Shown: in pieces, positions 3,485 through 64,000 of the stretch
Numbering within the stretch: position 1 is the stretch's first letter
Layout: every line of letters begins with the position of its first letter
Position numbers and translations under genes: made by a program
NCBI GenBank assembly: GCA_963514005.1
Contig: OY740784.1
Coordinates: 25,544,001-25,608,000 of the forward strand
From: Raja brachyura
Taxonomy: Eukaryota
Length of the DNA stretch: 64,000 nucleotides
Reading direction: 5' to 3'
Notes under the pieces: model-generated
The model's input: only the letters and a program-made list of their open reading frames with translations
Told to the model about the DNA's origin: nothing
The model's database searches: none

Positions 3485-3792
3485 GAGCGGTACAGTGGCG
3501 CAGTGGTCGAGTTGCTGCCGTACAGCACCAAAGACCCGGGTTCCAACCAGACTATGGATGCTTATCTGTACGGAGTTTGTACGGAGGTCTCCCCGTGAGC
3601 TGCGTGGGTTTTCTCCGGGAAGCTCCGGTTTCTTCCCACATTCCAAAGCCACACACGTTTGTAGGTTAATTGGCTTGGTAAAATTGTAAATTATCCCCGG
3701 TGTGCAGGTTAGTGTTAGTGTGTGGGGATCGCTGGGTGTCGCAGATTAGGTCGGCCAAAGGGCCTGTTTCCAGGCTGTATCTCTAAACTAAA
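3485..3792 (+). mobile_element. HE1-type V-SINE
   Basis: GTGGCGCAGTGG head, GGAGTTTGTACG..CTCCCCGTG..GCGTGGGTTTTCTCCGG V-domain, GGGCCTGTTTCC..TGTATCTCTAAACTAAA tail. Confidence 0.85.
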
Positions 3793-3827
3793 AGATAACT
3801 AAAAGTTATCAACCAACCCTGCGTACT

Positions 3828-8307: not shown

Positions 8308-8595
8308 CTGCAGCGATAGAGTTGCTGCCTTACAGCGCCAGAGATCTGGGTTCAATCCTGACAATGTGTGCTGCCTTTAAGGTGTTTGTACATTCTCCTT
8401 GTGCTTGTGTGGGTTTTCTCTGGGTTCTCTGGTTTCCTACCACATTCCAAAGATGTGCAGGTTTTTAGATGAACTGGCCTCCGTAAAATCTTTCCCAGTG
8501 TGTAGGATAGAACTAGTGTACAGGTGATCATTGATCGGTGCAAACTTGGTGGGCTGAAGGGCCTATATCGACACTGCATCTCTAAACTAAACTAA
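8308..8595 (+). mobile_element. HE1-type V-SINE
   Basis: tRNA-like head, V-domain and (CTAAA)n tail; inserted in Penelope GIY-YIG sequence. Confidence 0.85.
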
Positions 8596-22359: not shown

Positions 22360-22883
22360 AGTTGGACTGCAACAGGTTGCAACCTTTGAAATGACATCCT
22401 TTGCTACTTTCTCTCCAATGTATGCTTGCGACCTTTCTGATTTTTTCCATGAAACTGACCTTCTGCTTTCTGCAATTTTTTTGCCGATTATATACTCATC
22501 ACCCCAAATCCAATTAACCCCTTAATAACTCTTCCTGTTTAAGTCAACAAAAGTCTTCTCCTACTAACCTAAACTGGCTCCTTACTGAAGCAATGTATTG
22601 ATTTTAAAGTTCTGACAATTGTTGCCAAACTCCCCAGCTTTACCCTTCCCTACCACTGATCTTTTTTTCTGCCATAGGCTTATTTATTTGATCTTCGCCA
22701 GAATCATTGAACTATTGACGCCCAGACCACACTGATACAAACTGCAGAATTCCTTAGTTACATTACTCCACCATCTTATCTTTTTACTCCTTTATGGTAT
22801 TGCCTAATGTTACCGCAATGAGCACATTTTGGGTCATTTTCCCGAAATTCTCCTCAGGTGTTGCACGTCTTTGGGGTGTTGGA

Positions 22884-23402
22884 GGAAACCGGAGCACCCG
22901 GAGGAAACCTGTGCACCCAGAGGAAACCGGAGCATCTAGAGGAAACCGGGACACCCAGAGGAAACTGGGACACCAGAGGAAACCGGAGCACCCAGAGGAA
23001 ACCGGAGCATCCAGAGGAAACCGGAGCATCTAGAGAAAACCGGGACACCCAGTGGAAACCGGAGCACCCAGTGGAAACCGGAGCATCCAGAGGAAACCGG
23101 AGCATCTAGAGAAAACCGGGACACCCAGTGGAAACCGGAGCACCCAGTGGAAACCGGAGCATCCAGAGGAAACCGGAGCACCCAGTGGAAACCGGAGCAT
23201 CTAGAGGAAACCGGAGCACCCAGTGGAAACCGGAGCACCCAGAGGAAACCGGAGCACCCAGTAGAAACCGGAGCACCCAGAGGAAACCGGAGCATCCAGA
23301 GGAAACCGGAGCATCCAGAGGAAACCGGAGCATCTAGAGGAAACCGGAACACCCAGTGGAAACCGGAGCACCCAGAGGAAACCGGAGCACCCAGAGGAAA
23401 CC
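22884..23402. repeat. 19-bp minisatellite (27 units, consensus GGAAACCGGAGCACCCAGA) expanded inside a minus-strand V-SINE
   Basis: The unit is the reverse complement of the V-domain core GGGTGCTCCGGTTTCC; the SINE continues on both sides (ACGTCTTTGG.. and ..CACAGGGA). Confidence 0.9.
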
Positions 23403-23859: not shown

Positions 23860-24895
23860 GCAGGAGGAGACCTTTGACCAAGTCTAAGCCAGCTCCTTGT
23901 GTCACCCATCATATGCATTCCCCCACATCTCCCAGTAATTGTTCTTCCTCACATGCCCAACAAGTCACACCCACCACTCACTTATATTAGGAGAAATTTA
24001 CAATAGCCAATTAACTTACTGACCACACTTCTTTGGAGGAAATTGGAGAACCCAGGGTCACTGGGAAAGCATGCAAGCTCCACACAGAAAGCAACAGAGG
24101 TTGGGATTGAAGCCAGATCCCTGGAGCTGTGAGGCAATGTCTCTACCTACTGCAGCACATTTGATTTTAACTGAGTAAGAACAGTGGCACAGCTGGTAGC
24201 GTTACAGCTTCACAGCGTCAGTGATCCAAGTTTGATCCTGACCTTGGGTGGTGTCTGTGTGGAGTTTCCATGTTCTTCTTGTGACTACATGGGTTCCCTC
24301 CAGGTGCTCCAGTTTCCTTCAGGTACTCTGATGTTTCCTTCCACATCCCAAAGACAGGTGGGTTTGTATGTGAATTAGCACCTGTAAATTGCCACCAGTG
24401 TGTAGGGAGTGGATGAGAAATGGGAAAACAGAGCATTGGCATTAATGGGTGGTTATTGTTGGTCACCATGGAATCGGTGGGTGAAAGGACCGCTTTCCAT
24501 GCTGTATTTCCAAACTCGATAGTTATTGTAGCTTCAGAATGAGATAAGTCCCTTTCACTATTTTCTTTTACAAACAACAAGGGCGGCACGGTGGCACAAC
24601 AGTGGAGTTGCTGCCTTACAGCGCTTGCTGCACCCGAGGCCCAGGATCGATCCAGACTACGGGATGCTGTCTGTATGGAGTTTGTACGTTCTCCGCATGA
24701 CTGCGTGGGTTTACTCCGGGATCTTCAGTTTCCTCCCACAATCCAAAGACGGGTATGTGGGTAAATTGGCTTGGTATGAATGTAAATTGTCCCTAGTGTG
24801 TGTGGGATAGTGTTAATGTGCGGGGATTGCTGGTAGGTCCTGACTCGGAGGGCCAAAGGGCCTGTTTCTGTGCTGTATCTCTAAAATAAACTAAA
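23860..24895. mobile_element. Cluster of three V-SINEs (about 23860-24160 minus, 24181-24516 plus, 24581-24895 plus)
   Basis: tRNA-like heads (GTGGCACAGCTGG, GGCGGCACGGTGGCACAA), V-domains and CR1-like tails. Confidence 0.8.
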
Positions 24896-61705: not shown

Positions 61706-62255
61706 AGATACTTAATATGTGCTCCCTTCCTGTGAATGTCTGCAGCAGTAGAGGTACATCAGTGTTTGTTCCTTTGTAGTTTACCCCATTATAGCTTTTC
61801 CAGCAGGTGATTAGATATGGATAAACAAGTCTGATGGTGATGTATGAATATAAATTATATGATTCCTCTTTTTCTTAAAATAAAAATTGGCAAAGTAGTC
61901 TTGATATCAAATTAATTAATATTCCTTCATGTTTATATCCATAAACTGTCCTATGACAAAGACTGTGGTGAAACAAGTCCACCTTGGCCAACTCGATCTC
62001 CTGGTTGCCAAACATTTGAACTCCCTTCCCATTCCGACCTTTGTGTCCTGGGCCTCCCTGTCAGAGTGAGGTCTCATGCAAATTGGAGGAACAGCATCTC
62101 ACATTTTGCTTGGGCAGCTTACAACCTAGATGAACGTTGAGTTTTATCTAATTTCAATCAGCTCCTGCATTCCCACCCCCTCCTCTCTCCCACCCTAGTC
62201 ATCCTACTGGTTCCACTCTTCGCATCCTTGTATCCTTCTCATTAGCACATCTTCC

Positions 62256-62309
62256 GGGGTGGGAGATTACAACCTTCACGTGGTCCGCCCTGTTTCGACT
62301 AATGCAATC
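62256..62309 (+). ncRNA. Minimal (54-nt) HDV-like self-cleaving ribozyme
   Basis: P1 GGGGTGG/CCGCCCT with G1-U wobble; P2 GATTACA/TGCAATC (one mismatch); P3 ACC/GGT; L3 TTCACGT; P4 reduced to a UUCG loop; J4/2 C-TAA with catalytic C at 62299. Confidence 0.85.
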
Positions 62310-62398
62310 AACTCGACGTGCACAAACGGAAGATCAAATAGAACAAGTTGTCCAACAACTTTAGGCTGTGCACGCCACACGAAAGAAGAAGAAGGAGA
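62256..62398 (+). mobile_element. 143-bp non-autonomous retroposon with HDV-like ribozyme head and (GAA)n tail
   Basis: Perfect 12-bp TSD AGCACATCTTCC (62244-62255 and 62399-62410); tail ACACGAAAGAAGAAGAAG; no Pol III A/B boxes seen. Confidence 0.9.
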
Positions 62399-63098
62399 AG
62401 CACATCTTCCACAGCCATCAAGGAGCCATTATAGACTCCATCCTTCAAGACATCATCTGTTGTCAGCCCTGATTTGTTCTGACCTTTTTTTGCCTTTTTT
62501 TCCCCCATCCCCCCACCACCCCTCTCTTTCAGTCAGAAAAAGGGTTCCTACCCGAAATGTCACCCATCCCATTTTTCCAGAGATGTTGCCTGACTCGTTG
62601 AGTTTTTCTTCAATTTTGTGCCTATCTTCAGTTGATTCATTTCCATATTTCAGTCTGCAAAATGACACAAATTTACTTCAATTGCCCAAAAGCCTCTCGC
62701 GGACCAAAACGCAGACTCAATCATACTGCATAGTTCGGTACTACCCTTCATCAACTTTAGTCGTTGATAAAGCATTTGATGATGCCAACATTGTCAGATT
62801 TAGCATCACATGTTTATATTCAAAATGCTTTTAAGAAAAGCAAGCTATCACATTTTGGCATTCCTGAATGAACAGTTAAGCTATTACAGTAGTTTTCGCA
62901 AACAGGAATGTACTCCCATTTCACAACTTCTACTTTGTATGTTCTTGTTTGAGCTTTTCAATTTTAGCAGCGGTTCTTTAATGCATTGCCCTTTTCTTCA
63001 CATGTTCCGCAACAATGACATTATTTTGTCTGTAATTGGTAATATAAATTAGATCATTAGATTTTTGGCAGAGTAGTGTTCAAGTGAACAGTTTGGGT

Positions 63099-63402
63099 TA
63101 GGGTGACACAGTGGCGCAGCAGTAGAGTTGCTGCCTTACAGCGCCAGAAACCCATGTTCAATCCTGACTACAGGGGCTGTCTGTATGGAGCTTGTCCGTT
63201 CTCCTCCGTGACTGCTTTTGTTTTCTCAAGGTGTTCCGGTTTCCTCCCACATTCCATATATGTGCAGTTTTGTAGGTTAATTGGCTTCAGTAAAATTGTA
63301 AAATATTGTCCCTAGTGTGCAGAATTTAGTGTATGGGGTGATAACTGGTCGGTGCGGACTCGGTGCACCGAGGGACCCGTTTCGCACTGTATCTCTAAAC
63401 TA
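63099..63402 (+). mobile_element. HE1-type V-SINE
   Basis: GTGGCGCAGCAG head, V-domain, TGTATCTCTAAACTA tail. Confidence 0.85.
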
Positions 63403-63799: not shown

Positions 63800-63866
63800 G
63801 GTCCCATAACAGAAGCGTCCACGTCGCGGGGCTGGTAACTGGAAGTATCCCGAGTTAATTCTGCTA
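63800..63866 (+). ncRNA. HDV/CPEB3-like ribozyme fold; catalytic C position reads T in this copy
   Basis: P1 GGTCCC/GGGGCT (G1-U); P2 TAACAGAA/TTCTGCTA (one mismatch); P3 GCG/CGC; L3 TCCACGT; P1.1 CC/GG (63819-63820 with 63834-63835); J4/2 G-T-TAA. Confidence 0.8.
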
Positions 63867-63995
63867 CCACCATCATCTATTGCGCCAAGTGATGGCTCCC
63901 ACTGATTGTCGCCGGAAGCTTGCGTCCTTTTCACGATGGACGATGACAGCGATGTCAACATTTGAAACATGGGAGATGGACACGATAGAAGAAGA
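63800..63995 (+). mobile_element. ~195-bp retroposon with CPEB3/HDV-like ribozyme head and (GAA)n tail
   Basis: Tail ACACGATAGAAGAAGAAG; the putative TSD starts AGCC on both sides (63789 and 63996) but the window ends before it can be confirmed. Confidence 0.75.
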
Positions 63996-64000
63996 AGCCG

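Follow-up and report, generated by a model that had tools for sequence, protein, structure and literature searches.

The window, a stretch of DNA of 64,000 nucleotides, carries a 143-nt insert at positions 62256 to 62398 that is flanked by exact 12-bp direct repeats, as seen by sequence comparison (Table 1). The insert begins with a predicted HDV-like ribozyme, ends with a microsatellite tail, and represents a dispersed family, here called family A. A copy of a second family, family B, lies 1.4 kb downstream. The first-pass annotation had fixed the ends of the insert from its target site duplication (TSD). Both ends were confirmed by the exact duplication and by a contig of sequencing run X23 (organism H, a related species) that carries the empty site, in which 62243 is fused to 62399 with the 12 letters shared. 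Elsewhere, the window contains members of a ~300-nt repeat family (63100-63400, 3492-3798, 8310-8589, and 24580-24888), which we take to resemble the tRNA-derived SINEs of sharks and rays, and a tandem array with a period of ~76 nt (22882-23402).

Table 1. Features of the insert, its flanks, and related families
Feature	Position	Strand	Remarks
Upstream host stretch, complementary throughout to element nt 2-11	62186..62195	+	Predicted competitor of P1 in window copy
Left TSD, 12 bp	62244..62255	+	Exact repeat; run X23 has the empty site
Predicted minimal (P4-less) HDV-like ribozyme	62256..62309	+	Predicted cut 5′ of G62256; catalytic C62299
Part from 5′ end of LINE VA, element nt 1-72	62256..62327	+	L222 match and further copies
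5′ arm of predicted end-to-end pairing	62317..62324	+	From LINE 5′ UTR
Junction: short duplication of last 5′-UTR letters plus ~5-8 further letters	62328..62347	+	By eye
Part from LINE 3′ end, element nt ~93/100-139	62348..62394	+	Last codons, 3′ UTR, tail start
3′ arm of predicted end-to-end pairing	62367..62374	+	From LINE 3′ UTR
(GAA)n tail	62385..62398	+	
Right TSD	62399..62410	+	Exact repeat of 62244-62255
Family B copy, 198 nt, 10-bp TSD	63800..63997	+	Tail as in A; HDV-like head resembling CPEB3; T in place of the catalytic C here
Family C, ~165 nt	L156-L161, L167		TSDs, P4-less head, 12-bp end pairing
Family D, short derivative with V3 head, 11-bp TSD	L124:380-575	+	One copy seen

Copies and ends of family A

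An exact-pattern count of the 29-nt head of family A gave 7,091 copies in which nt 14 is G and 125 in which it is A, while reversed-pattern controls gave 0 matches. These counts (~7,200) are lower bounds and partly include heads of the LINE described below, for which the same kind of count in the window's genome gave 320 exact LINE-type junctions. A DNA search of the window's genome returned 406 candidates, and all 40 that were scored aligned from nt 1 or 2. An exact TSD of 7 to 15 bp abutted G1 in 12 of 30 sampled G14 copies, the rest being degenerate or interrupted. A precise 5′ end, as the first-pass annotation had expected, was also apparent in sequences unselected for their ends: in 193 reads of run X24 and 169 contigs of run X23, heterogeneous flank started at the equivalent of 62256 (agreement, 0.35 to 0.37). 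The unrelated flanks and the variable TSD lengths are those of independent retrotransposition events.

Family A splits into two subfamilies, A1, which includes the window copy, and A2, which looks older. A1 copies are ~95% alike, a value biased upward by selection, and 91% alike in 4 incidental copies. Family-A-related sequence was listed for 24 sequencing runs of eight organisms; 4 runs from three of these organisms were examined. Copies with identical flanks or clustered identical junctions at two places (L056-L060, G000:C1:14.57-14.95 Mb; G000:C6:102.4-105.8 Mb) are segmental or tandem duplications carrying the element. One copy (L044) has its own 3′ end inverted directly upstream of its head, possibly through inversion during insertion.

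The predicted ribozyme head

Nucleotides 1 to 54 contain the parts of a nested double pseudoknot in the required order (P1, P2, P3, L3, and P1.1), and a structural descriptor located them where the first-pass annotation had placed them. P1 (62256-62/62285-91) is opened by a G-U pair, P2 (62265-71/62303-09) encloses one A-C mismatch at 62269, and P3 (62272-74/62282-84) is capped by L3 (62275-81). G62292 provides the P1.1 G, a 7-nt stub replaces P4, and C62299 corresponds to the catalytic C. The descriptor, which was designed with the family-A element already in view, gave 1 match in the window and 1 match in a 1.92-Mb Markov control, both strands being searched in each case. Rfam model RF02682 aligned to exactly the same coordinates, but its score of 16.2 bits (E 5.6) lay far below the cut-off of 44. 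Two further family-A copies gave no Rfam match at E≤0.5, and on these scores family A falls below the curated threshold for HDV-like ribozymes.

A catalytic C as the first J4/2 residue is used to recognize HDV-like ribozymes (PMC10879173; here and below, citations refer to excerpts of the papers), and this residue (C44) was present in 64 of 66 family-A copies. Families A and C both lack P4. In this they resemble the minimal P4-less HDV-like and theta ribozymes, which also have a short loop for P4 and a C first in J4/2 but have been reported almost only from gut phages, whereas family A is the head of a high-copy animal retroelement; the excerpt reports no theta ribozyme matches in the eukaryotic genomes searched (PMC10879173).

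Covariation in P1 and P2, proposed earlier as a check on the fold, was found between families. Within family A (66 copies), no two-sided covariation was seen because the family is too young. Across six families (A, B, C, D, V1, and V5), 99 of 100 P1/P2/P3 pairs were standard despite differing letters; single columns show as many as four types of pair, and pairing is preserved through changes on both strands. All six families also have a G after P1 and C-N-(A/G)-A ahead of P2. This comparison used one copy per family, chosen for fit, with registers set by the author and the V2 row, which did not anchor, left out. Within family A, the frequent head variants sit at unpaired nt 8, 42, and 45 or preserve pairing (U-G to U-A at nt 32). 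Folding energies did not rise above chance (z, +0.70 for the whole element and −1.07 for the 3′ part), by a method that cannot model a pseudoknot. A looser ribozyme pattern had fewer matches than its own control and carries no weight as evidence; its one use was to lead to family C.

Self-cleavage of nt 1 to 54 at G1 is thus a prediction from fold and conservation, and RNA reads were compared with it. Poly(A) RNA from organism H (run X24, ~6% of the run; strandedness off record) provided 715 reads on the element stretch. Of these, 707 lay only partly on it, and therefore the element is mostly transcribed inside longer transcripts. The 193 reads with upstream flank cross G1. There was no pile-up of molecule starts at G1 or elsewhere among the 715 reads of this poly(A) RNA from another species, and no selective fall in depth near G1 in either mate orientation, antisense copies not being removable. 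First mates numbered ~245 and 139 on the two strands. These reads count mildly against efficient cutting of most transcribed copies; they neither show nor exclude cleavage.

The same origin would also accommodate a ribozyme that is a passenger, in which case the exact 5′ end would come from an internal promoter, as for Pr77 of L1Tc, and the fold would cut poorly. The lack of a start pile-up at G1 and the 193 read-through reads suit such an arrangement, as do the double role of Pr77 as promoter and ribozyme (PMC3383444; PMC8256844) and the inactivity of certain well-folded SIDER ribozymes (PMC4035085). However, copies that are uncut, mutated, or antisense are overrepresented in steady-state poly(A) RNA. 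Pairs are preserved across six families, including those of P2, whose 3′ strand lies past the catalytic C, and the variants frequent in family A avoid breaking pairs. A passenger ribozyme is therefore quite improbable in our judgment, and cleavage by typical family-A copies is predicted with considerable confidence.

The window copy is a less favorable case. The A at 62269, which the first-pass annotation had recognized as a damaged P2 pair, is the rare letter at nt 14; this sporadic G>A change breaks one P2 pair, leaving 6 of 7. Together with the competing host flank (Table 1), the mismatch has likely weakened the ribozyme of this copy.

The parent LINE and its relatives

Judged by its sequence, the 143-nt element is a bipartite, internally deleted Vingi-like LINE that has kept both ends, and its origin from such a LINE, here called VA, is nearly certain. 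One LINE copy (L222) matches element nt 2 to 72 at 90% and then runs on into a 5′ UTR and ORF, and 11 more distinct copies (12 rows, of which L246 and L259 are the same) diverge at nt 72 and continue into the LINE 5′ UTR. The 3′ end of the element (nt ~93 to 139) was matched at 83 to 89% by 4 of 7 extended LINE copies, and the LINE stop codon corresponds to 62362-62364 by a reading frame set by eye in L266. Both ends occur together in a single natural copy (L240/L265) that measures 3,095 nt from head nt 8 to the tail. Between the two parts, the junction at 62328-62347 supplies the outer left arm of a small hairpin, an arm that the LINE appears by eye to lack. The structured 3′ domain described in the first-pass annotation accordingly does contain an inverted repeat and an inner hairpin; it is, however, a fusion of LINE 5′ UTR and 3′ end and not a separate domain.

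Vingi elements are compact single-ORF APE-type elements without RNase H (PMC13708176), and the ~3.1-kb parent has this compact single-ORF APE-type form. In VA, the endonuclease (PF14529) starts within ~200 nt of the head and is followed by a reverse transcriptase recognized by tblastn likeness. The C-terminal pieces of VA and V5 gave no Pfam match to RNase H, a weak absence given that the copies are broken. By tblastn, VA was closer to V1 and V5 than to loci that we take to be CR1-, L2-, Nimb-, and RTE-like. The clade is assigned to Vingi provisionally, by its architecture and by its similarity to a single published 5′ end. The top 30 PF14529 matches in the search belonged to another clade, with neither a ribozyme head nor homology to family A or B; among 17 lower matches that were fetched, 1 was Vingi-like, the one that led to L222. 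One family-A copy with a TSD (L244:1364-1502) has inserted into a copy of its parent LINE, within the part that corresponds to the endonuclease.

These results favor the Ingi/Vingi-like source that the first-pass annotation had offered and disfavor its RTE-like alternative: a DUF6451-bearing RTE family (150 of 847 candidates scored) has nothing in common with family A beyond the tail and a short ribozyme core. They also revise the idea of an independent SINE-like parasite into that of a deletion product of a LINE. No tRNA was found in the element by ARAGORN, in line with the earlier remark that no such head is visible, and a SINE in the strict sense is excluded by the lack of a small-RNA-gene head (tRNA, 5S, 7SL, or snRNA). 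The family-A Rfam score, far under the cut-off, and the nonsignificant folding z-scores might be taken to suggest a conventional Pol III SINE, or else a miniature DNA transposon, with an HDV-like fold arisen by chance. Against this stand the absence of a tRNA, a head that is the LINE's own 5′ end, the variable TSD length with a microsatellite tail, and a descriptor chance rate of ~1 per 1.92 Mb on both strands. LINE homology at both ends refutes such an element, and we assign it a negligible probability.

The genome contains related families of both long and short elements. Family B has 2,736 candidates in the genome; by eye, its middle looks like the beginning of a Vingi ORF. The catalytic C is present in 26 of 30 family-B copies. 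The P3-L3-P1 core of family C is nearly equal to the Rfam CPEB3 consensus. Parent LINEs of families B and C were not found, nor was the 3′ end of long V3 copies in the stretches examined. At least five Vingi-like LINE families (V1 to V5: L174, L186, L203, L214, L216, L224, and L226) each carry a different HDV-like head. An RTE-type family (L122, L123, and L124) of ~3 kb with an (AAG)n tail begins, by eye, at an HDV-like P1 whose first letter is C and has a P2-P3-L3 core nearly equal to that of family A. The V2, V4, and RTE heads were identified by eye only, and the V4 and RTE heads fail the HDV descriptor.

Copies of VA have a mean pairwise identity of 86% (best, 91%), and every one seen is broken; by these values the parent copies are older than subfamily A1. 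All parent copies seen being broken and older, none of them is an evident source of the protein for the youngest A copies. The recent spread of family A may thus have been driven by another LINE, either a younger Vingi or the (AAG)n-tailed RTE, an addition that is compatible with descent from VA. V4 and V5 copies are ~91 to 95% alike, compared with at most 91% for VA; a similar ACG/TCG-(AAG)n terminal motif is common to all these families, and the RTE family has both an (AAG)n tail and an HDV-like head of its own. On the other hand, the RTE has at its 3′ end nothing but the tail in common with A, RTE copies are also only ~88% alike, and a young VA master may be unseen, given that 40 of 60 VA candidates were scored and that 320 LINE-type junctions exist. 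Another driver is accordingly a possibility that we do not favor.

Probable pairing of the ends and likeness to the CPEB3 ribozyme

The arms at 62317-24/62367-74 form an 8-bp inverted repeat around the inner hairpin. Pairing between element ends was tested in fixed windows, 30 nt after P2 against 30 nt before the tail motif, in all eight families with both ends available (short family D taking the place of V3). The cognate assignment had the lowest summed duplex energy of 40,320 assignments, and for 7 of the 8 columns and 6 of the 8 rows no partner was better than the cognate one. In 5 long elements, in which the arms are 1.3 to 3 kb apart, only the pair of windows adjacent to P2 and to the tail ranked 1 of 120; 15 shifted window pairs ranked 10 to 120. 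Thirty family-B copies averaged −15.8 kcal/mol, compared with −7.7 kcal/mol for shuffled sequence (aligned positions; the copies are not independent). Pairing was strong in A, B, C, D, and V4. It was weak taken alone in V1, V2, V5, and one VA pairing, for which 62, 90, 239, and 64 of 1,000 shuffles, respectively, were as good.

From these comparisons, the two ends likely pair, and the pairing probably constitutes a functional panhandle. The complementarity could instead act at the DNA or cDNA step, through second-strand priming or a template jump, or could only protect the RNA. The evidence consists of sequence complementarity and is weak in three families, which leaves room for such roles, but the arms occupy a constant position within the ends, directly after P2 and directly before the tail, in 3-kb and in 140- to 200-nt elements alike, an arrangement that suits an RNA structure. 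We therefore consider action at the DNA or cDNA step, or RNA protection, unlikely as compared with a handle for the protein.

Taken as a whole, the element is best explained as a LINE deletion derivative with a self-cleaving head and paired ends that is copied by a Vingi protein, to which we give a probability of roughly 0.75. Transcription of a copy would start either in host DNA, as read-through, or at an internal promoter, and the ribozyme would remove everything upstream of G1 to produce an exact 5′ end. The stretch after P2 would pair with the stretch before the tail and so present a handle for the Vingi protein, which would copy the RNA in trans by target-primed reverse transcription. 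In the full LINE, the same pairing would join ends 3 kb apart. End pairing is the proposed reason why both ends and little else have been kept.

Several of the heads resemble the CPEB3 ribozyme. Against Rfam model RF00622, family B heads scored 31.7 to 41.4 bits, with 2 of 6 above the cut-off of 35; family C scored 26.9 to 28.2 bits (2 of 3 copies), the V5 LINE head scored 24.1, and family A gave no score at E≤0.5. The fold and L3 of the CPEB3 ribozyme are nevertheless equal to those of family A. The mammalian ribozyme differs from family A in being single-copy, intronic, and conserved and in having P4. The 5′ end of the crocodilian Vingi-2_Gav, as printed in the supplement of Kojima 2018 (PMC5786205), matches the Rfam CPEB3 consensus by eye at 38 of the first 40 nt, including P2, and at 13 nt around the catalytic C, and in the same supplement SINE2-1_AMi also shares the P4 stem with that consensus by eye. 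These likenesses suggest that the CPEB3 ribozyme is a domesticated Vingi head. We also lean toward a wider reading in which the Vingi group begins with an HDV-like ribozyme and forms a panhandle required by its protein, and in which the CPEB3 ribozyme descends from a Vingi 5′ end by domestication; under the same reading, ribozyme head and panhandle would be why Vingi sheds tiny two-ended parasites such as the present element.

Elements of this kind are already known. Bipartite nonautonomous LINEs include the Vingi-1_EE derivatives, RIME (Ingi), NARTc (L1Tc), and Bov-A and RTESINE (RTE) (Kojima 2018, PMC5786205); as in family A, an internal deletion joins LINE 5′ and 3′ ends in dispersed, many-copy elements without an ORF. 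The design of ribozyme head plus 3′ end has likewise been described for R2 SIDEs and NARTc/SIDER. In R2 SIDEs, an HDV-like ribozyme is joined directly to the 3′ recognition end, as in family A, but these elements are rDNA site specific and rare (PMC3414825), whereas family A is dispersed in ~7,000 copies and has an APE-type parent. In the sister clade, the cut site of the L1Tc/NARTc/SIDER Pr77 ribozyme is the element's first nucleotide, and short derivatives keep the ribozyme (PMC4035085, PMC3383444). One 5′ stretch of 77 nt there is both ribozyme and promoter (PMC3383444), a precedent that bears on the promoter-less state which the first-pass annotation proposed for the element, and NARTco and SIDER ribozymes are active in vitro (PMC4035085); the L1Tc ribozyme is trypanosomatid and has P4, unlike that of family A.

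End pairing and the link between CPEB3 and Vingi are absent from the papers searched. The literature search found no paper on end-to-end pairing and none joining CPEB3 with Vingi, and papers on Vingi and ribozymes did not link the two in the text examined. The main text of Kojima 2018 does not mention CPEB3, and neither "origin" nor "transpos" turned up in a word search of Bendixsen 2021 (PMC8233481). A review notes ribozymes related to CPEB3 in lamprey and in lancelet and mentions retrotransposition as a general means of spread (PMC8256844). Priority for these observations is uncertain.

If the predicted cleavage holds, HDV-like ribozymes would extend to Vingi, thousands of introns and intergenic transcripts in the genome would carry a potential self-cleavage site, and the 54-nt P4-less form, hitherto reported mainly from phages, would head an animal retroelement. 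Why two-ended derivatives arise in only a few LINE clades was called unknown by Kojima 2018 (PMC5786205), and end pairing offers an explanation. The pairing is relevant, too, to how templates are designed for gene-writing tools based on Vingi, in which both UTRs flank the payload (PMC13708176). The human genome contains the Vingi relic X12_LINE (PMC5753468). The importance of the finding lies less in a single, probably weakened copy than in the predicted ribozyme of Vingi, the pairing of its ends, and the connection with CPEB3. The last of these, if true, gives a concrete candidate for the source of the CPEB3 ribozyme, a ribozyme that has been associated with memory.
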